DNA of 64,000 nucleotides from a virus (taxonomy: Duplodnaviria; Caudoviricetes). The notes below the pieces were generated by a model that was given only the letters and a program-made list of their open reading frames with translations, was not told where the DNA came from and ran no database searches. The stretch covers positions 1 through 64,000 of IMG/VR virus record IMGVR_UViG_2738541308_000001, one strand, 5' to 3'. A program made the position numbers and the translations under genes. Positions within the stretch are counted from its first letter, which is position 1. Each line of letters opens with the position of its first letter. This document shows, in pieces, positions 26,511 through 61,034 of this stretch.

Positions 26511-26680
26511 AGGGGTGACCTTCCGTGAGTGGAGGGTGGTCCTATGGGGTGCACGAATGTGCTCACACTGTGGAGTTCTCAAGGATCATGGGGGAGCGGA
26601 TTTCACCCGACCAGATTCGGTGTCCGCACCCCAGCTGAGACTGGGGGGACTTACGGCCTTGCCGGCGGGCTTTCGTTGCC

Positions 26681-27087
26681 GGCTTCCAGTGGCCTTGTCA
26701 GTGACTGTCACTCACTGGCATGACCATAGTTTGCACTATGGGTGCATAGTCTGTCAACACTTGGGTTAGATCCCAGGTCAAGGGTGGTTTGTCATGCCCC
26801 CAGGTGGGAGCTAGGGGAGTGGCTACCCCCTGAGTGGTGGTCAGTATGGGCACTGCACTGGTGGCCCCCTGGTGGCCCCTGGGGGCTCAATTGCCCCTTG
26901 GGGTACCCAAGGGGGCAGGATGGCACTTTCTGGCCCCTTAAGGGCAAATAGGGGGCACTATGACCAAATAGCCAGAATTAGCCCTGAGGACTTGACACAC
27001 TATGCCCCCATAGTGTTACCTCAGTGCATGAAACCAGCTGCCCCACAACACAAAGGAGGTGAACCAATGACAATCAAACAACACCCC
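26681..27087. promoter_or_regulatory. Divergent promoter region 1, CpG-free, with CACTATG-N4-CATAGTG operators
   Basis: TTGACA on the - strand at 26752-26757 and on the + strand at 26992-26997, each abutting an 18-bp palindrome (26734-26751, 26998-27015). Confidence 0.8.
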
Positions 27088-52144: not shown

Positions 52145-52666
52145 TCACTCTTCGATGACTTCTTCTGCGGTGACTCCCGATTGGGGAGCGTCATCGCCGT
52201 CATCGTCGAGGTCGATGGTCTGCTGGCCGGCGTTCTTTCCGTCACCGATTGCCTTCTGCCGGCTCTTACGCTTCGGCTTTGGGGCCTCGATCGGATTGAA
52301 CATCCATTCAGCGGTGTGATTGCCCAGGTAGTTGATCAGCAGATCAGAACTCTTGAAGTCGATCGCTGCGCCGTCGGCGCCGATCTTCTTCTTGAGGTAC
52401 CCGGTTTGTTCTGCGATGCAGAACCATTCACCACCGACGTGTTCCCATACGAGTTGGATTTCACGGGCCTTACCTTCGGGAGATCCGTCGGCTTTGACCT
52501 TGTGTGCGCGGACGGTGATCCGCGCAACCACCTCGTTGACCACGCTGTGTTCGACGGTGTAACTCCAGCCCATGAGGAGCATCGCTCCGAGCACGTTCGT
52601 GAAGTCGTCCGGAAGGGTCTCAGTCTTGAAAACCGGGACATACGCTTCGGTGGACTTGCTGGACAT
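52145..52666 (-). CDS. Hypothetical protein
   Basis: ggaaagggg RBS; acidic tail. Confidence 0.7.
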   Translation of the reverse strand: MSSKSTEAYVPVFKTETLPDDFTNVLGAMLLMGWSYTVEHSVVNEVVARITVRAHKVKADGSPEGKAREIQLVWEHVGGEWFCIAEQTGYLKKKIGADGAAIDFKSSDLLINYLGNHTAEWMFNPIEAPKPKRKSRQKAIGDGKNAGQQTIDLDDDGDDAPQSGVTAEEVIEE

Positions 52667-52828
52667 AATGGTCCCCTTTCCGAGGGATCATCGGCAGCAA
52701 CACCATTGGGCATTGCTGCCTTGTGGTTGTGGGTGTCTCACGCTATTGAGTTCTCAAAGATCATGTGCTCGAGGGTTTCTCCCCTGGCCTATTCAGGGTT
52801 CCCAAGAGCCGGCATTCAGACTTGTGAC

Positions 52829-53352
52829 GATATGAAGTTGTTGGGACAGACCAACACTGAGGTTTTCCAGACTCTGAGCTGGTATCCAGATTGCTTGCCA
52901 GCTGGCCTGTGTTGCTGGCCCCTACTGGCTTGCTGATGCATAGTTTGCCCTATGGGGGCATAATCTGTCAACCCTGCAGGTGGGAGGCTATTTCTGGGGC
53001 AATTTATGGGCCTTGTTGACCTCTCAGGGCTGTGAACTGCCCCTTGGGCTGCACTGCACCACTGGCCAACCTCAGGGATGGGTGGTCCTGGCCCTGAGAT
53101 CAATTCTCAGAGCCTGTGAGTCACTATGGGTACATAGTGCCCAGAATGGCCCAAGGATTGCCCAGGGCCTCCCTCAGGGGCATTAATTGCAATAGTTGTA
53201 ACAGAGCTTGCACTATTGGGGCATAGTGACCTAATGTCAGGGGCACACCAGCTAGTCAAGCTGGCCCAGGGGGCAAGTGCCCCAGGGGAACATCCCAAAC
53301 CAGTGAGGTCACTCATGGGAGAACATCACCCAAATGTCACCACAGCCCAGCC
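52829..53352. promoter_or_regulatory. Divergent promoter region 2, CpG-free, with CACTATG-N4-CATAGTG operators
   Basis: TTGACA on the - strand at 52966-52971 abutting an operator at 52948-52965; further operators at 53122-53139 and 53211-53228. Confidence 0.8.
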
Positions 53353-53387
53353 GGCCCAACACCTCCCCAGCGAGACAGGGGAGTGAG

Positions 53388-53579
53388 ATGAAAAAGATCA
53401 GAGTCATCTGGGAAGAACACAGCACACACCAGCAGGAGTTCGACGTTCCGGACGACTTCGCAGTCGAACCACACGAAGAGGGATACGACCTCAGCAACGC
53501 GCTCGCCAGCCTCGTAGACGAGCGCGGCGACGGATTCCTGGGACTCGAACGCACCGTAATCGACGTGACCGAGCTATGA
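53388..53579 (+). CDS. Small acidic protein
   Basis: ggggag RBS. Confidence 0.6.
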   Translation: MKKIRVIWEEHSTHQQEFDVPDDFAVEPHEEGYDLSNALASLVDERGDGFLGLERTVIDVTEL

Positions 53580-53890
53580 GCGACCAAACGACAGTCGCCG
53601 TCATCGAATACACCGATCACCACGGTGAAGTCAGATACTTCGACGACGGAGTCTGGGCTGACATCGAACTACCGAGCATCCGTGCGCACGCCGGCAGATA
53701 CCTGTTCACCAACGAATCTCTCACCTGCACCGGCGACCACAAAAACGGAAGTTTCACCGTCGACTTCGGTGGCGGAGAAACGATTTGGTACGCATGGCGA
53801 CTGCTGACCCTCGACGCACAGGACGCCGCGAACACCAGAATCATCGGTTGCGATTCCGACGCGACTGTGACTGAACGGAGCACCACATGA
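53576..53890 (+). CDS. Hypothetical protein
   Basis: ATGA overlaps. Confidence 0.6.
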   Translation: MSDQTTVAVIEYTDHHGEVRYFDDGVWADIELPSIRAHAGRYLFTNESLTCTGDHKNGSFTVDFGGGETIWYAWRLLTLDAQDAANTRIIGCDSDATVTERSTT

Positions 53891-54654
53891 TCGAACTCGA
53901 CGGAATCACCCCGTCGAAGCAGATGCTCGACGACCTCGCAGCGGAAGGTCGACCCGTCATCCTCAACTTCTCCCGCGGCAAAGACTCAGTCGCCGTCTGG
54001 ATCGAACTCGAACGACGAAACATGCAGGTCATCCCGATCCACAAGTCGATCGTGCCGGGACTGAAGTTCGTCGAGGACGATCTCAAACGCTACGAAGACT
54101 ATTTTCAAACACATATCGTCGACCTGCCGGCAGATGCGTTCTACCGCATGCTCAACAACCTCACCTTCCAGCCGCCCGAACGCTGCGCGATCATCGAAGC
54201 TGCAGGATTCCCGTCGCCGACACGCGAAGAGTGGGACATGCTCATGCGCGACAACTTCGCCGAGGACGACACCTGGATCCTCGACGGCGTGCGGGCAACA
54301 GACTCCGCCCAAAGGCGAATGGCGATCATGCGCCACGGCCCGATCAAACACCGCACCCGACGCCAGTCCGTCATCTGGGACTGGGGCATCGCAGACGTGC
54401 GACGGGCGATCAAGGACCGCGGCATCACACTCGGCCCCGACTACGAGTGGTTCGGCAAATACCTCGCCGGAAAAGTGAACCCCAGACACAGAGGCGGGCT
54501 CGACGGCAACGGTCGGTCCTTCGACGGAATTCGCTACGACTTCCTCAAGCCGATCCGCGACCACGCCCCCGACGACTACCAGCGAATCCTGCACTGGTTC
54601 CCGCTGGCTGAACTCGAACTGATGAGAATGGACATGATCAATGGCTCTGTCTGA
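53887..54654 (+). CDS. PAPS-reductase-like PP-loop (adenine nucleotide alpha-hydrolase) protein
   Basis: NFSRGKDS PP-loop, GVRATDS..RR, IWDW, DYEWFG...RSFDGI. Confidence 0.85.
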   Translation: MIELDGITPSKQMLDDLAAEGRPVILNFSRGKDSVAVWIELERRNMQVIPIHKSIVPGLKFVEDDLKRYEDYFQTHIVDLPADAFYRMLNNLTFQPPERCAIIEAAGFPSPTREEWDMLMRDNFAEDDTWILDGVRATDSAQRRMAIMRHGPIKHRTRRQSVIWDWGIADVRRAIKDRGITLGPDYEWFGKYLAGKVNPRHRGGLDGNGRSFDGIRYDFLKPIRDHAPDDYQRILHWFPLAELELMRMDMINGSV

Positions 54655-55021
54655 CGAAGTGAAAGCAAAGCTCAAAGCCGGAGGCAATCGCGCGAAGTTC
54701 TCCCGCGCAGACGTCGTCTCCGCCTTGAAAGCGAAACCCCACCCCGACCCCCTCGCCGACGTCGAATACACCGACGACATCGAGCACGACACGAAGGCCG
54801 AACTCAACGCGCTCGGCAAAGGCTTGTCCGGAGCGTCGAAAGAGTGGGCTGAACAGTTCGGCCAGATGAACGACTCCGAGTACTGGGTCGCACTGTGCTT
54901 CAAGAACCGTGCAGCGAAAGATGCCTTCCTCGCCAGCGCCGGCGTGCTCGAACTAGGGGACAAGTACCTCGACGGTCACAAAGCCGCAGAGATCCTCGGA
55001 ATCGAATTCGAGGGCCGGTAA
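54641..55021 (+). CDS. Partner of the PP-loop protein
   Basis: DSEYWVALCF....KDAFL...GDKYLDG; overlaps the upstream gene. Confidence 0.7.
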   Translation: MALSDEVKAKLKAGGNRAKFSRADVVSALKAKPHPDPLADVEYTDDIEHDTKAELNALGKGLSGASKEWAEQFGQMNDSEYWVALCFKNRAAKDAFLASAGVLELGDKYLDGHKAAEILGIEFEGR

Positions 55022-55150
55022 CCACCGACTTCCCCACCCGGGCAACCGGGTTGCGGGTTGACCAAAAGCCCACCAGCAGCTGAAAGCCCCGAGTCGCCGA
55101 AGTGTCTCGGGGCTTTCTGCTGCCCGGATCACAGGAAAGGAGGGGTGACC

Positions 55151-55273
55151 ATGCGTAATGCAGCCCGTCGTCTCGGCCAGCGCATCTCCGGTGTTTTCAA
55201 CCGAATCACTGGCCGTAACCGCAACCGCACCGCCGCAAGCCCGGCAGCCGGTTCTCTCAGCGGTTCGACCTAA
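55151..55273 (+). CDS. 40-aa Arg-rich peptide
   Basis: Very strong RBS aggaaaggagggg before MRNAARRLGQRISGVFNRITGRNRNRTAASPAAGSLSGST. Confidence 0.6.
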   Translation: MRNAARRLGQRISGVFNRITGRNRNRTAASPAAGSLSGST

Positions 55274-55373
55274 GAGGTCAGGCGTTGGTCGCGTGCTTGA
55301 AATGTGCACCGACCGACGTCACAACCCGTCCCCACAACTGAACAATCGAGCCGACTCTGACGGGAGGGCCAAC

Positions 55374-55724
55374 ATGAGCAGCCCGGAGCTTTCCGTAGTT
55401 TCCCTGCGCCCCAACCACAAACCACCTGAGCCCACTTCATCGGACGCGCCACCGGAGACACCAGAGTGGCTGACCGACATCGGCAAACAGACGTGGGCAC
55501 GGTTGGCCCCCTTGTTCAATCTCACGCCCGCTGACATCGACGAATTCGCCGCCTACTGCGAGGCGATCGCCGAATATCAGGAATCGACCGTCATCATCGC
55601 CGAAGCTGGACTGCTCATCATCGACCCTGCGTCGGGCATGCCGATTCCGAACCCGATTCAGGCCGTTCGTGATCGAGCGGACCGCAAACTCGCATTTTGG
55701 GCCGGCCGCTTTCGAGGCGCGTGA
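55374..55724 (+). CDS. P27-family terminase small subunit-like
   Basis: PEWL...GKQTW.RLAP......D...AAYCEA...G.PIPNP. Confidence 0.7.
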   Translation: MSSPELSVVSLRPNHKPPEPTSSDAPPETPEWLTDIGKQTWARLAPLFNLTPADIDEFAAYCEAIAEYQESTVIIAEAGLLIIDPASGMPIPNPIQAVRDRADRKLAFWAGRFRGA

Positions 55725-55727
55725 TAC

Positions 55728-56366
55728 ATGGCTCCGCTTCCACCCGCGTCTCGATCGCGGACAACTCGCCCGAAGAAGGGCACGAAGAAGCCGGACCTCA
55801 CACAGGCTGAACGCGACAAGATCGCTGCGTTGCATGCACAGGGCAAGGGACGCAACGAGATAGCGCGCGAGATCGGCCGGTCCGCGTACTCGGTCACCAA
55901 GGTCGCCAAGGAACTCGGGCTTTCATTCGACGAAGCTGCGACGGTCGAAGCGACAGCCGCTCGCGTCGCGAAGATGAAGGCCCGCCGAGTCGACCTCGCC
56001 GAGCAACTTCTCGACGACGTCGTCAAGCTCCGTGAGCGCCTGTGGTCCCCACACAACTACTACGAACGCGGCCAGGACGCCATGATCCCGGTGACCTTGC
56101 CGCTGCCCCCGCTGCGCGACGCCCGCGACGGCTACGCCGCACTGCAGATCGCGCTTAAAGGCCACATGGATCTCATTGCTGGCTCTACCGATTCGTCGGT
56201 CGAGGACAAGCGGTCCGTGCTCGCCAATCTCATCGATCGCATCAAGACGGTCGTCGACGAGGACAAGAAGAACGGTGCGCCGCCGCCGGACACATCAGTG
56301 CCCGTCAACGACGAAGCCGGTACCGCCGCAGAGCAGAAGGAGGTGGCGGGTGACGACGTTCAATGA
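55728..56366 (+). CDS. HTH terminase small subunit
   Basis: LHAQGKGRNEIAREIGRS; directly upstream of TerL. Confidence 0.75.
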   Translation: MAPLPPASRSRTTRPKKGTKKPDLTQAERDKIAALHAQGKGRNEIAREIGRSAYSVTKVAKELGLSFDEAATVEATAARVAKMKARRVDLAEQLLDDVVKLRERLWSPHNYYERGQDAMIPVTLPLPPLRDARDGYAALQIALKGHMDLIAGSTDSSVEDKRSVLANLIDRIKTVVDEDKKNGAPPPDTSVPVNDEAGTAAEQKEVAGDDVQ

Positions 56367-57633
56367 CCTGCCACTGTCGCGGAAGCAGCTCTACTCGATA
56401 GCCGAGGCCGAAGCCCGCATCAACATCTGGGAAGGCGCAATCCGGTCCGGAAAGACCTTCGGCTCGATGATGCGGTGGCTGATGTTCTTGTCGAACCCGC
56501 CAGGGGGCGGACAGTTCGTCATGGTCGGGCGTACCCGCGAATCCCTCGCTCGCAACGTTATCTCACCGATGCAGGATCCCGACATCTTCGGGGAATTCGC
56601 CGACACCGTCCACTACGTCACAGGCGCGCCGTCTGCGACGATCCTGGGTCGCCGCGTCTACATGCTCGGTGCGTCGGACGCGAAGGCGGAGAAGTCCCTT
56701 CGAGGGCTCACCGTTGCCGGTGCCTACGCCGACGAAATCACCGTTATCCGGTCGGACTTCTTCCATCAGCTACTCGGTCGTATGTCTGTCACCGGCGCGA
56801 AGTTGTTCGGAACGACGAACCCCGACAACCCGATGCACTGGCTCAAGGCCGAGTATCTCGACCGACTGCATGAGCTTCCAGACTGGCGCAGTTGGCATTT
56901 CACGCTCGACGACAACCCTGCATTGTCCGAGGACTACAAGAACTCGATCAAGCGCGAGTACACAGGCCTCTGGTACCGCCGCTTCATCCTCGGTCACTGG
57001 GTCGCAGCGGACGGCGCCGTCTACGACATGTGGGAGCCGTCCAAGCACGTCGTGCGGTGGCAGGACCTACCGCAGATGGTGGAACTGTTCGGCGTCGGAG
57101 TGGATTACGGCACCACGAATCCCACCGTGGCGTTGTTGCTCGGCGTGGGTGCCGACGGCGTGCTTTACCTGATCGACGAATGGTCGTACACGCCACGATC
57201 GGACGCCACCCGATGGACCGACGCGCAACTTTCCCGCGGCCTGCGTGACTGGCTCGCGGAAGGTCACCTGCCGTACCCGACGCGAATGCCTCCCGGGCCG
57301 GTCATCGTCGACCCCGCTGCGGCGTCGTTCCGGGTTCAGCTCCTCCAGGACGAACTCCCGACGTATGCGGCCGAAAACGATGTGCTGTATGGGATTCGGA
57401 CCATCGCAACGTTGCTCTCGACTGGAAAGCTGAAGGTCACCGATCGCTGCAAGACCTTCATGACCGAGGTCGCCGGTTACTCGTGGGACACGCAAGCAAC
57501 ATCCGAGGGCTACGACCAGCCCATTAAGTCTGCGGATCACGCGCTCGACGCTGCCCGCTACGCCATCGTCACCACCGAAAAGCGGTGGCGGCGCTACGTC
57601 GATGTGAACGGAGGCGAGTATGCCGCTTCCTGA
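56350..57633 (+). CDS. terL: Terminase large subunit (PBSX-type)
   Basis: EGAIRSGKT, ADEIT, TTNPD, VDYGTTNP, DHALDAARY. Confidence 0.95.
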   Translation: MTTFNDLPLSRKQLYSIAEAEARINIWEGAIRSGKTFGSMMRWLMFLSNPPGGGQFVMVGRTRESLARNVISPMQDPDIFGEFADTVHYVTGAPSATILGRRVYMLGASDAKAEKSLRGLTVAGAYADEITVIRSDFFHQLLGRMSVTGAKLFGTTNPDNPMHWLKAEYLDRLHELPDWRSWHFTLDDNPALSEDYKNSIKREYTGLWYRRFILGHWVAADGAVYDMWEPSKHVVRWQDLPQMVELFGVGVDYGTTNPTVALLLGVGADGVLYLIDEWSYTPRSDATRWTDAQLSRGLRDWLAEGHLPYPTRMPPGPVIVDPAAASFRVQLLQDELPTYAAENDVLYGIRTIATLLSTGKLKVTDRCKTFMTEVAGYSWDTQATSEGYDQPIKSADHALDAARYAIVTTEKRWRRYVDVNGGEYAAS

Positions 57634-59198: not shown

Positions 59199-61034
59199 AT
59201 GTCGTTAGGCCCCGAGCAGATCGAAGCTCTCATCCGGGCGTCGTCGGCGGTGTACGCCTCAGCCGAGCAAGTGCTGATCGGCCGTGTCGCCGCGGCCGTA
59301 GCCGAGGATGCCCGCCAACCGCGGTCCGGCGTGCGTCGGTGGAGCCGCATGAACGAATTCCGCAGCGCGGCGCGGGAGTTGATGGCCGGTACCTACGTCC
59401 GTGGACGAAGAGAGGCGATGCGGGCTCTGGCCGAGTCCGCGGATCGAGGCCGGCGTGCGGCGATGAAAGAGCTCCCGTCGGTATGGCTTCGGGAGTCAGC
59501 ACCACACGTGCCACGCACATCAGCCGCAACGCTGGTTCGCGCACCTGCGGGGTTGTTGCCGTCGTTGTCGCGGATGCATCCGCACATCCTGGCCTCAACC
59601 GAAGGCCTCTACCGGCAGGTCATGGCAGGAGTCCTATCCTCCCGGATCCAGGGGGAAGCCGGTCGGGTGGCGCTCGCGCAGCAGATGCTCGACCGGTTCG
59701 CAGCACGCGGAATCACCGGCTTCGTCGATCGGCGCGGTCGCAGGATCAACCTGGTCAACTACGTCGAAATGGCAACCCGCACAGCATGTGCGCGGGCTGC
59801 GATGGATACGCACACGGCACTGCTGTCGGAGAATGGCTACGACCTGGTGCGTGTAAGCACCGTGGCGAATTGCTCACCACAATGCGCACCGTTCCAGGGT
59901 CGGCTCCTGTCCCTGACTGGCGCCACACGCGGTGCGATCCACGCCGGCCGATCAGTCCCGGTGGTGGCGTCATTATCCGAGGCACGCGCACGCGGACTGC
60001 ACCACCCGGGCTGCCGCCACGGTTTGCGACTGTGGGTGCCCGGCGACGATCTCCCGAACGTGACACCGGTTGATCCCGCTGGATACGTGGCCACGCAACA
60101 GTTGCGAGCCCTCGAACGAGAGGTGCGGGCCAGCAAGCGGATGCGCGCGGCAGCGATCACCCCCGCTGCAATAGCAACGGCGAACACTCGCGTGCGCGCA
60201 GCACAGAAGCAAATCCGAGAACTGGTCGACGAGACCGGCGTGCCACGCTTGCGGCGCCGAGAACAGATCGACCTCGGATACCGCACACGGCTCGAGCGCC
60301 CGGCGATGGTGACGGGCAACCCAGGTCCACCAGCTCCTGACTCGCCTCGCTCCCATGGCGGCGACGGATACCAACGCCAACTGCAACGGCTCACCGACAT
60401 CGACGTCGCGGCGACCGGATTCGAGGTCGCAGACCTGGACACATTCGGAGAACTGGTGGACGCGGTCGTCGACATGCATTACAGGTATCCGTGGGCGCGG
60501 GCGCCCCGCTTGCGAACACGAGACCTCCCCGAGCGGCACCTGGCGAACGCGGGCGGCAATCCGGATCCCGACAACCCCGGAGGATGGATCGTCGGCAGGC
60601 TCTCGGTTTCGGAGACAGTGCTCCGCGACCGGTCAGCCCTGCTGGCTTCACTCGAACAGGACGAGCAAGGCGGTTTCCACCCACGCAACTCAGCCCGCAG
60701 AGGGATGTGGTCGGTCATCGTCCACGAATTCGGGCACGTCATCGACCACCTCGGCAATCACACGGCGCGCCGGAAAGTACTTCGGACGGTCACAGAGGTC
60801 ATGTCACGGCATCCTGAGGTGGTGAAAGGCGACAACGACACTCAAACCCGATGGCTGCAGAGTCAGATGTCGGGGTACTCGTTCCGCCACGACAACTCCA
60901 TGATCGTCGATCCGGTCGAAGTTCTCGGCGAAGCGTTCCTCGACGTCGAACTCAACGGCGACGACGCAACGGAAGTCTCGCGCGCACTGCACGAGATGCT
61001 GCTCGCACAGGTTCCGGAGGCTAGAAAGCAATGA
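59199..61034 (+). CDS. Minor capsid (MuF) protein with C-terminal HExxH metallopeptidase extension
   Basis: YVEMATRT, CAPFQG, GLHHPGCRH, then VHEFGH. Confidence 0.85.
   Translation: MSLGPEQIEALIRASSAVYASAEQVLIGRVAAAVAEDARQPRSGVRRWSRMNEFRSAARELMAGTYVRGRREAMRALAESADRGRRAAMKELPSVWLRESAPHVPRTSAATLVRAPAGLLPSLSRMHPHILASTEGLYRQVMAGVLSSRIQGEAGRVALAQQMLDRFAARGITGFVDRRGRRINLVNYVEMATRTACARAAMDTHTALLSENGYDLVRVSTVANCSPQCAPFQGRLLSLTGATRGAIHAGRSVPVVASLSEARARGLHHPGCRHGLRLWVPGDDLPNVTPVDPAGYVATQQLRALEREVRASKRMRAAAITPAAIATANTRVRAAQKQIRELVDETGVPRLRRREQIDLGYRTRLERPAMVTGNPGPPAPDSPRSHGGDGYQRQLQRLTDIDVAATGFEVADLDTFGELVDAVVDMHYRYPWARAPRLRTRDLPERHLANAGGNPDPDNPGGWIVGRLSVSETVLRDRSALLASLEQDEQGGFHPRNSARRGMWSVIVHEFGHVIDHLGNHTARRKVLRTVTEVMSRHPEVVKGDNDTQTRWLQSQMSGYSFRHDNSMIVDPVEVLGEAFLDVELNGDDATEVSRALHEMLLAQVPEARKQ

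Follow-up and report, generated by a model that had tools for sequence, protein, structure and literature searches.

A PP-loop enzyme, an unnamed partner protein and tailed basic micro-peptides constitute a three-component late-gene module of tailed phages

The PP-loop enzymes of the CysH/CysD/FAD synthetase group (PF01507; FAD, flavin adenine dinucleotide) have a Rossmann-like fold, an S-x-G-K-D-S PP-loop and a second motif, G-x-R-x-x-(D/E)S-x-x-R. CysH, the reductase of phosphoadenosine phosphosulfate (PAPS) or adenosine phosphosulfate (APS), carries its catalytic cysteine in a C-terminal ECGLH-type motif. The IbrA/IbrB-type pairs of phages combine a PAPS-reductase-like enzyme with a ParB-like partner beside the terminase genes. 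Lasso peptides and other ribosomally synthesized and post-translationally modified peptides (RiPPs) are made by an ATP-dependent enzyme and a small recognition protein from short precursor peptides. Cap9 reportedly conjugates a deazaguanine to a CD-NTase (cGAS/DncV-like nucleotidyltransferase). DndC, SspD and BrxP are described as ATP pyrophosphatases of PAPS-reductase fold that act on DNA together with partners, and phosphorothioation by them as requiring cysteine-rich features and a nucleoside triphosphatase (NTPase) partner (excerpts of PMC12914056 and PMC12839542). QatC is described as a PP-loop enzyme in a stable heterodimer with QatB, a small family-less protein and likely substrate whose N-terminal loop reaches the active site; the chemistry common to the superfamily is given there as the ATP-dependent adenylylation of an oxygen with release of pyrophosphate (excerpts of PMC13376578). 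The locus described here lies in a window of 64,000 nucleotides (nt), the whole stretch of DNA that was analysed, which is the start of the 84,259-bp IMG/VR virus record IMGVR_UViG_2738541308_000001 (an actinophage of the provirus class, 98% complete). It encodes a PP-loop enzyme, a partner protein of an unnamed family and an arginine-rich basic peptide, a trio that is a three-component late-gene module of tailed phages.

All parts of the module are on the plus strand of the window. The enzyme open reading frame (ORF; 53887-54654, 255 amino acids (aa)) is recognized by matches to phrog_2302 and phrog_424 and by its AlphaFold2 fold, and its stop is overlapped by 14 nt by the ORF of the acidic partner (54641-55021, 126 aa). 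Three stem-loops predicted by RNA folding follow at 55036-55051, 55055-55071 and 55076-55123. The Shine-Dalgarno sequence AAGGAGG at 55137-55143 stands 7 nt 5' of the ATG of the peptide ORF (55151-55273, 40 aa, MRNAARRLGQRISGVFNRITGRNRNRTAASPAAGSLSGST, net charge +8). A preliminary description of the sequence had noted a PAPS-reductase-like protein with FSRGKDS, an overlapping partner, hairpins at about 55020-55123 and a basic peptide with a very strong ribosome-binding site (RBS), placed upstream of the terminases and downstream of a CpG desert. Each of these is borne out: F28-S-R-G-K-D-S34 is found in the 53887-54654 product, the interval around the hairpins folds far better than shuffled sequence (see below), the small terminase begins at 55374 and a CpG-free stretch occupies 52828-53352.

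The module enzyme shares the fold and both motifs of the CysH/CysD/FAD synthetase enzymes, from which it differs in having no catalytic cysteine or ECGLH motif, in being phage-borne beside terminases, and in its obligate non-GTPase partner and adjacent tailed peptides. With the IbrA/IbrB-type pairs, as these are generally understood, it has in common a PAPS-reductase-like PP-loop enzyme and a small obligate partner 5' of packaging genes, but the partner appears to be of another, unnamed family, without a ParB_N match at a Pfam expectation value (E) ≤ 0.1, the enzyme has no DUF3440-type C-terminal match, and peptides with a conserved tail are added. A literature search on IbrA/IbrB and YbdN/YbdM yielded nothing useful. 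Unlike DndC, SspD and BrxP, the module enzyme has no conserved cysteine or iron-sulfur (Fe-S) motifs and no PADLOC match, and neither a DndD/SspC/BrxC-type NTPase nor a cysteine desulfurase is present among the module neighbours. QatC and QatB are similar in that a PP-loop enzyme is paired with a small protein of no known family; QatC and Cap9 differ in belonging to a QueC-like PP-loop branch, in serving host defence rather than being phage late genes, and in having no separate adaptor-plus-peptide arrangement. The RiPP pathways may be likened to the module in that a putatively adenylating enzyme is encoded together with a roughly 100-aa protein and with short, end-conserved peptides, one to three in number. 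In contrast to them, the module has no protease, exporter or immunity gene, its enzyme is not Asn-synthetase-like, and its peptides are arginine-rich and stand at the head of a phage packaging operon.

The association of enzyme and partner is conserved in all testable loci retrieved with the partner. Searched with the partner profile, IMG/VR yielded 239 confirmed relatives, of which 80 loci were kept; the enzyme was located by tblastn directly 5' of the partner in 78 of them, the partner of the other two lying at a contig edge. In a collection with one genome per species, 55 loci were located, from Nocardia, Amycolatopsis, Saccharopolyspora, Lentzea, Actinomadura, Microbacterium, Brachybacterium and Arthrobacter and from Myxococcota, Pseudomonadota, Pedosphaera, Orrella, Hydrogenophaga, Eubacteriales and Holophagaceae assemblies. 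The enzyme is 5' in 54 of these 55; at the exception, L141, the match to the partner is weak and partial, and this locus was excluded from later counts. When the sets are pooled, the two genes are adjacent in this order in 129/129 testable loci; in the remaining five of the 134 the upstream sequence is too short for the test. The gene-neighbourhood check supports one conserved module beside terminases. The loci are not independent: single linkage at 60% partner identity groups them into 14 clusters, 25 loci fall into a single gut-type group, and several of the viral loci are also present in the genome set. In four named phages, Gordonia phage Cafasso, Cutibacterium phage CA1NRNZ, Pasteurella phage Pm86 and Bifidobacterium phage BigBern1, the pair adjoins the terminase genes. 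The module precedes at least four unrelated kinds of terminase (Terminase_4, Terminase_7, Terminase_6N/6C and GpA) and its link is therefore with packaging, or with the point where the late operon begins, rather than with any single lineage of terminases. The complete trio was found in Actinomycetota, Pseudomonadota and Verrucomicrobiota, always at packaging genes; in metagenome-assembled genomes of Myxococcota, Bacillota and Acidobacteriota the enzyme-partner pair is present and a tailed ORF was not found. Megablast of 53300-56400 against phages gave no match.

The peptides are recognized by their two ends. Short basic ORFs with an RBS, located right 3' of the partner, were selected, and an alignment of 29 of them reads MRxxx..RRAAS....R(S/T)SG(S/T), the family consensus being MR...RRAAS....R[ST]SG[ST]-stop; the peptides have an isoelectric point (pI) of about 12 and a net charge of about +8. 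In seven close relatives of the window the partner is followed by a hairpin, a strong RBS and a basic ORF of 38-48 codons, and the RBS of the relatives' peptide ORFs match AAGGAGG over 5-7 nt. Most of the 80 viral loci have one to three ORFs after the partner that start with MR and end in R-[ST]-S-G-[ST]. Stop-delimited frames of at least 20 aa were counted in these same loci: 153 of the 1439 frames downstream of the partner (1.6 kb, same strand) end in [STL]SG[ST]-stop, against 4 of 12,049 elsewhere (all six frames), and at least one tailed frame is present in 69/80. In the pooled set the exact tail is found in 111/132 testable loci, and four more have the motif followed by 1-9 further residues; at the level of partner clusters the figures are 8/14 for the exact tail and 9/14 when the extended tail is included. 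Among 105 distinct tails, S at position -3 and G at -2 are invariant, R occupies -5 in 88 and S/T occupies -4 in 101, and the last position is S in 81 and T in 24. The window peptide has S-G-S and then one extra residue (T) before the stop. Variant tails at some loci include ..NSGGSPQQR, ..GGRVYTS, ..STSNS and ..LAGS, and a looser filter gave no candidate peptide at loci L046, L073, L129, L137 and L140.

Base composition is no explanation for the motif, since the tail also occurs in the AT-rich Pasteurella phage Pm86, where two unannotated ORFs directly after the partner (L003, 5134-5382) have the family start, the RRA(S/A) core and the RSSGS-stop tail. Bifidobacterium phage BigBern1 has one unannotated basic ORF (L004, 2219-2320) with S-G-S and three further residues. 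In loci of the L057 type the start of the first peptide ORF overlaps the last 6-7 nt of the partner match, and as many as three peptide paralogues with the same tail are present. The ratio of nonsynonymous to synonymous polymorphism (pN/pS), calculated from 13 distinct DNAs of a Nocardia-type group, is 0.167 in the peptide frame and 3.3 and 2.6 in the other frames; judged from these sequences, the peptide ORF is under purifying selection and is not a chance frame. Tailed ORFs were absent near the terminase of all three phages examined that have no enzyme or partner, namely Arthrobacter phage RootBeer (small terminase, TerS, 40% identical), Corynebacterium phage PSonyx (large terminase, TerL, 54%) and Streptomyces phage Keanu (TerL, 49%); whether tailed peptides occur without the enzyme pair is judged here from these three controls. 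The selection, the enrichment of the tail and these controls together support the peptide ORF of the preliminary description as a genuine gene tied to the enzyme pair. Searches with the peptide itself added little: a narrower peptide alignment retrieved one locus, on a contig already in the set, tblastn against phages gave no match at E ≤ 10 with a query that is short and of low complexity, and the Atlas search gave no usable match.

The enzyme matches phrog_2302 with E 1.9e-20 (residues 93-245, profile positions 121-276 of 381) and phrog_424 with E 3.1e-5, both labelled PAPS reductase. The window enzyme has no Pfam match at E ≤ 0.1, either to PF01507 or to a DUF3440-type C-terminal domain; in individual scans PF01507 was touched at E ≤ 1 by 8 of 28 aligned family members (best 2.3e-7). 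A word-indexed search returned 374 relatives under the names 'adenine nucleotide alpha hydrolase family' and 'PAPS reductase', and PF01507 is annotated on 2 among the 120 matches listed. The family is marked by the motifs FSxGKD(S/A), DGVRAxDSxxRR and RSFDG. Residues invariant in the 28 sequences include F28, S29, G31, K32, D33, G134, R136, D139, R143, D165, S211 and D213 and no cysteine. The AlphaFold2 model is of high confidence (predicted local distance difference test score, pLDDT, 94.5; predicted template modelling score, pTM, 0.90), and in it the PP-loop motif follows the strand 24-27. The model was compared with 48,161 PDB representatives using VIA-align, in which CysD (1zun_A; Z 13.2, root-mean-square deviation 3.4, 147 residues aligned) and the PAPS domain of human FAD synthase (Z 13.2) were tied at the top, followed by TilS/MesJ (Z 12.6), APS/PAPS reductases (Z 11.4-12.2), LarE (Z 11.8) and Cap9 (Z 10.4). 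Thirty-five representatives had Z ≥ 8, and the matches listed, down to Z 7.2, were all of the PP-loop (adenine nucleotide alpha hydrolase) type. Foldseek against PDB gave template modelling (TM) scores of about 0.45 to TtuA, GMP synthetase, LarE and TilS, and a PDB sequence search found only the PP-loop segment of TtuA (E 0.015). NCBIfam and PADLOC scans of the module proteins gave nothing meaningful, with no PADLOC match at E ≤ 1. The profile matches, the modelled fold and the invariant PP-loop support the PAPS-reductase-like identity given in the preliminary description, and on this sequence and model evidence the enzyme is a PP-loop ATP pyrophosphatase of the PAPS-reductase/CysD/FAD-synthetase fold.

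The best cysteine column is filled in 15/28 family members (C100 in the window, its only cysteine), 10/28 have a single cysteine, and the ECG[LIV]H motif is present in 0/28. Because a conserved cysteine and this motif are both missing, thiol-based PAPS/APS reduction and Fe-S sulfur transfer of the DndC, TtuA or LarE types are very unlikely activities of the enzyme. With the sulfur routes set aside, ATP-dependent adenylylation of an oxygen would, by analogy with the superfamily, be the chemistry left to it.

The partner family is large and unnamed. No Pfam (E ≤ 0.1), PHROG, NCBIfam or PADLOC relative of the window partner was found, and a PDB sequence search gave nothing below E 0.09; a profile built from 19 sequences matched 1286 representative clusters at E ≤ 1e-3 and 849 at E ≤ 1e-10. 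The protein consists of an acidic PDPLADVEYTD-like motif, a long helix and a small C-terminal DSEYWxAxCF...GDKYLDG unit, with W82, A84, C86, F87, R90, K93, G106-D-K-Y109 and G112 invariant. Its model is of middling confidence (pLDDT 77). Fold comparison with PDB representatives reached at best Z 4.8, on the long helix only, and with BFVD at best E 0.86. The Atlas search returned only unnamed viral clusters, with one structural row for a ParB-like cluster at TM 0.31. The fold searches are dominated by the long helix. Many family members hold two copies of the domain, and in two metagenomic proteins, P0299 (445 aa) and P0300 (473 aa), the enzyme is fused to two partner repeats, which is an argument of the Rosetta-stone kind for a joint function of enzyme and partner. 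Two-repeat partners without a fused enzyme are also common, as in Cafasso gp167, in BigBern1 and in many rows of the profile search.

The interval 55015-55160 between partner and peptide folds with a free energy of -72.8 kcal/mol (z -5.4; 0/200 shuffles as stable). The large hairpin at 55076-55123 is GC-rich and is followed by TTTCTGCTG; equivalent hairpins are visible in 7/7 close relatives. A simple promoter and terminator scan of the window did not list the hairpins. A further stem-loop predicted between peptide and TerS at 55281-55320 (plus strand) is statistically weak (z -1.69, 9/200 shuffles as stable), with clearer inverted repeats visible by eye at this position in relatives. An Rfam match of 52600-55450 to the small RNA F6 (26 bits, gathering threshold 46) hit both strands of the big hairpin and was rejected as chance.

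Four soil metatranscriptome runs contain a relative that is 95-99% identical. The RNA data are assembled contigs only, whose depth is a poor measure, and DNA contamination of the RNA libraries is possible. Contigs over the enzyme gene and the beginning of the partner gene have a word depth of 2-7. A separate contig in each run starts at 55040-55050, spans the big hairpin and the peptide ORF and reaches into TerS at a depth of 22-48, extending in one run to 55800; the 5-10-fold step between adjacent parts is unlike contaminating DNA. In two runs the contig start consists of sequencing-adapter letters, which fits many fragments beginning near 55040-55050. No run has contigs over 54788-55040, which is uninformative. 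These data are a hint that suggests an abundant RNA with its 5' end near 55048 and the hairpin as leader, and the hairpin may stabilize that RNA. Both nucleotide differences in the relative's RNA over the peptide ORF (55159 and 55195) are synonymous.

The preferred explanation, to which a probability of about 0.5 is given, is that the enzyme-partner complex modifies or ligates the tailed peptides using ATP, at the time of packaging. It is preferred because the fixed trio, the fusions, the complementary charges (median pI 5.5 for the enzyme and 5.3 for the partner, against about 12 for the peptide) and the conserved ends of the peptides agree with a pattern already known, in which an ATP-using enzyme and an adaptor act on short gene-encoded peptides. 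The complex would bind the tailed peptides, with the partner as adaptor. ATP would serve to adenylylate the peptide, at the tail carboxylate or a Ser/Thr hydroxyl, or else a second substrate, to which the peptide would subsequently be coupled. The modified or conjugated peptide would be made as DNA packaging begins, and would most likely act on or with phage DNA. For DNA as the place of action, the position before the packaging genes and the charge of the peptide are a pointer and no more. Hypermodification of DNA by the module, as proposed in the preliminary description, is unproven, the position beside the packaging genes being the sole evidence for DNA as target.

Several observations weigh against the modification of peptides by the enzyme-partner complex. 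The tail is not always terminal, being followed by one residue in the window and by 3-9 in others, and no recognizable tail ORF is found in 17/132 loci and 5/14 partner clusters. The close kinship of many loci means that the counts overstate the number of independent cases. A strong hairpin stands between partner and peptide in the window, and the RNA contigs run from 55040-55050 into TerS; the transcript that carries the peptide may accordingly be that of the terminase and not that of the enzyme. In Cutibacterium phage CA1NRNZ, enzyme and partner are encoded on one strand and the basic ORF on the other, that of the terminase. Finally, the nearest solved folds are those of CysD, FAD synthase and CysH, whose substrates are small oxyanions or nucleotides rather than peptides.

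The strongest competitor, possible but on balance unlikely, is that the pair acts directly on phage DNA or nucleotides, in a DndC- or IbrA-like marking at packaging, and that the peptide is a separate DNA-binding or packaging protein that opens the late operon. The position directly before four unrelated terminase types is in its favour, as are the hairpin and the separate peptide-TerS RNA contig of the window-type locus and the strand of the peptide in CA1NRNZ. Lactobacillus phages LR1 (L142, 4163-4588) and JNU_P7 (L143, 4166-4962 and 4965-5663) both have an enzyme homologue (profile E 1e-32 to 1e-34) with no member of the partner family next to it, and the two ParB-like genes further on in JNU_P7 also favour direct marking. 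Basic proteins of 123-141 aa follow the enzyme homologue in these two phages and end in the Gly/Ser tails ..GSSGKSSG, ..GSTGSKGG and ..GSTGSRGG; basic, tail-bearing products therefore follow the enzyme even without the partner family, which counts for the preferred explanation, and these loci may be a bridge to ParB-type modules. Against direct marking of DNA stand the acidity of enzyme and partner, in neither of which a DNA-binding domain was seen in Pfam and fold searches, and the behaviour of the peptide, which tracks the enzyme pair rather than the terminase type, is missing in the three related phages without the pair, and overlaps the end of the partner in many loci.

A more specific form of peptide ligation, and a rather improbable one, is that the enzyme-partner complex covalently joins the arginine-rich tailed peptides to the genome during packaging. 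The link would be to a base, by TilS-like chemistry, or to the 5'-phosphate ends made by the terminase, in which case the phosphate would be adenylylated as by FAD synthetase and CysD and attacked by the Ser/Thr of the tail. If true, the peptide-DNA link would be a hypermodification or an end cap shielding injected DNA from host nucleases.

It is much less probable that the 40-codon ORF is a regulatory leader whose translation between the hairpins sets read-through into the terminase, the peptide being functionless. Its location between stem-loops with a very strong RBS directly 5' of TerS, and RNA contigs that span hairpin and ORF into TerS, would suit such a role. Selection acts at the amino-acid level, however, actinophages and a Pasteurella phage of opposite base composition have the start and tail in common, some loci have up to three paralogues, and at some the ORF overlaps the partner end and no hairpin is present. 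That the enzyme is a genuine CysH, reducing PAPS or APS as the product of an auxiliary metabolic gene that boosts host sulfate assimilation, is suggested by database names, by the fold similarity to the reductases and by the interpretation of phage PAPS reductases in excerpts of bioRxiv 10.64898/2026.02.18.706556, PMC13369170, PMC6145125 and PMC9144972, but is scarcely credible given the cysteine and ECG[LIV]H counts, CysD and FAD synthase scores as high as those of the reductases, the missing PF01507 match in the window, and a tie to partner and tailed peptides at terminases of several phyla that a metabolic gene would not need.

The preliminary description had further proposed that a modification by the enzyme module would explain CpG-free promoters. 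Two CpG-free stretches are present in the window, at 52828-53352 (524 nt, 55% G+C) and 26680-27087 (407 nt, 56% G+C). The window as a whole has a G+C content of 61.8% and a CpG observed/expected ratio of 1.23, with approximately 20-45 CpG per 300 nt elsewhere. The stretch 52828-53352 fills most of an apparent gap of about 670 nt in the mechanical ORF list, which separates leftward ORFs from the rightward ones leading to the enzyme. A CpG-free run of at least 150 nt within 1.1 kb 5' of the enzyme is found in 21/121 loci, namely 19 of the Nocardia-prophage clade nearest the window (runs of 203-393 nt), L115 and L140, with 20 of the 21 in Nocardia; the other 100 have the same enzyme-partner pair, most of them with tailed peptides, and no such run, and a general link between module and desert is rejected. 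No observation ties the enzyme to C or G in CpG. Six CpG-free stretches align poorly (51% mean column identity), with a common ATTGTTGGGGC(A/G)ACCC motif at one end, and the desert is thus kept without sequence conservation. It is a genuine property of one clade, of which the module is independent, and is worth a study of its own.

Downstream of the module, the order of genes is small terminase, HTH_38 (helix-turn-helix) protein, large terminase, portal and MuF-like protein. TerS (55374-55724, plus strand) matches PF05119 Terminase_4 with E 7.5e-10 and phrog_83 with E 6.4e-18, and the HTH_38 protein (55728-56366, 212 aa) matches phrog_5536 with E 1.8e-44. Gordonia phage Cafasso, once its permuted record is closed, has the same gene order as the window from the enzyme onward: gp166 enzyme, gp167 partner, gp168 a 48-aa ORF, gp1 TerS, gp2 HTH, gp3 TerL, gp4 portal and gp5 MuF. 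An HTH gene directly 5' of TerL is found in Cafasso, after TerS, and also as gene 1 in PSonyx and Keanu; the HTH_38 protein between the terminase genes may be a second DNA-recognition subunit for packaging. The 611-aa ORF at 59199-61034, after the portal, was compared with the MuF protein of Cafasso by position only. It has a long C-terminal extension with H-E-x-x-H (..VHEFGHV..), a sequence that suggests a fused metallopeptidase-like domain.

Neither the partner family nor the tailed peptides were found described in the main texts of the literature searched, and the module belongs with the poorly understood PAPS-reductase-like modules of phages. Phage PAPS reductases have been counted as sulfur auxiliary metabolic genes from which ecological conclusions were drawn (excerpts of PMC13369170 and bioRxiv 10.64898/2026.02.18.706556), and the genes of those papers may belong to other clades. 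For the clade described here the sulfur-metabolism label 'PAPS reductase' is almost certainly a misnomer: the enzyme belongs to a fixed trio, whose other members are a partner from an unnamed family and micro-peptides whose genes are mostly unannotated. The module is directly testable because cultured, non-pathogenic carriers exist, the Gordonia phages Cafasso, Aleemily, ObLaDi, Morgana and VanLee, and its chemistry would be a new kind of peptide modification or of DNA marking.

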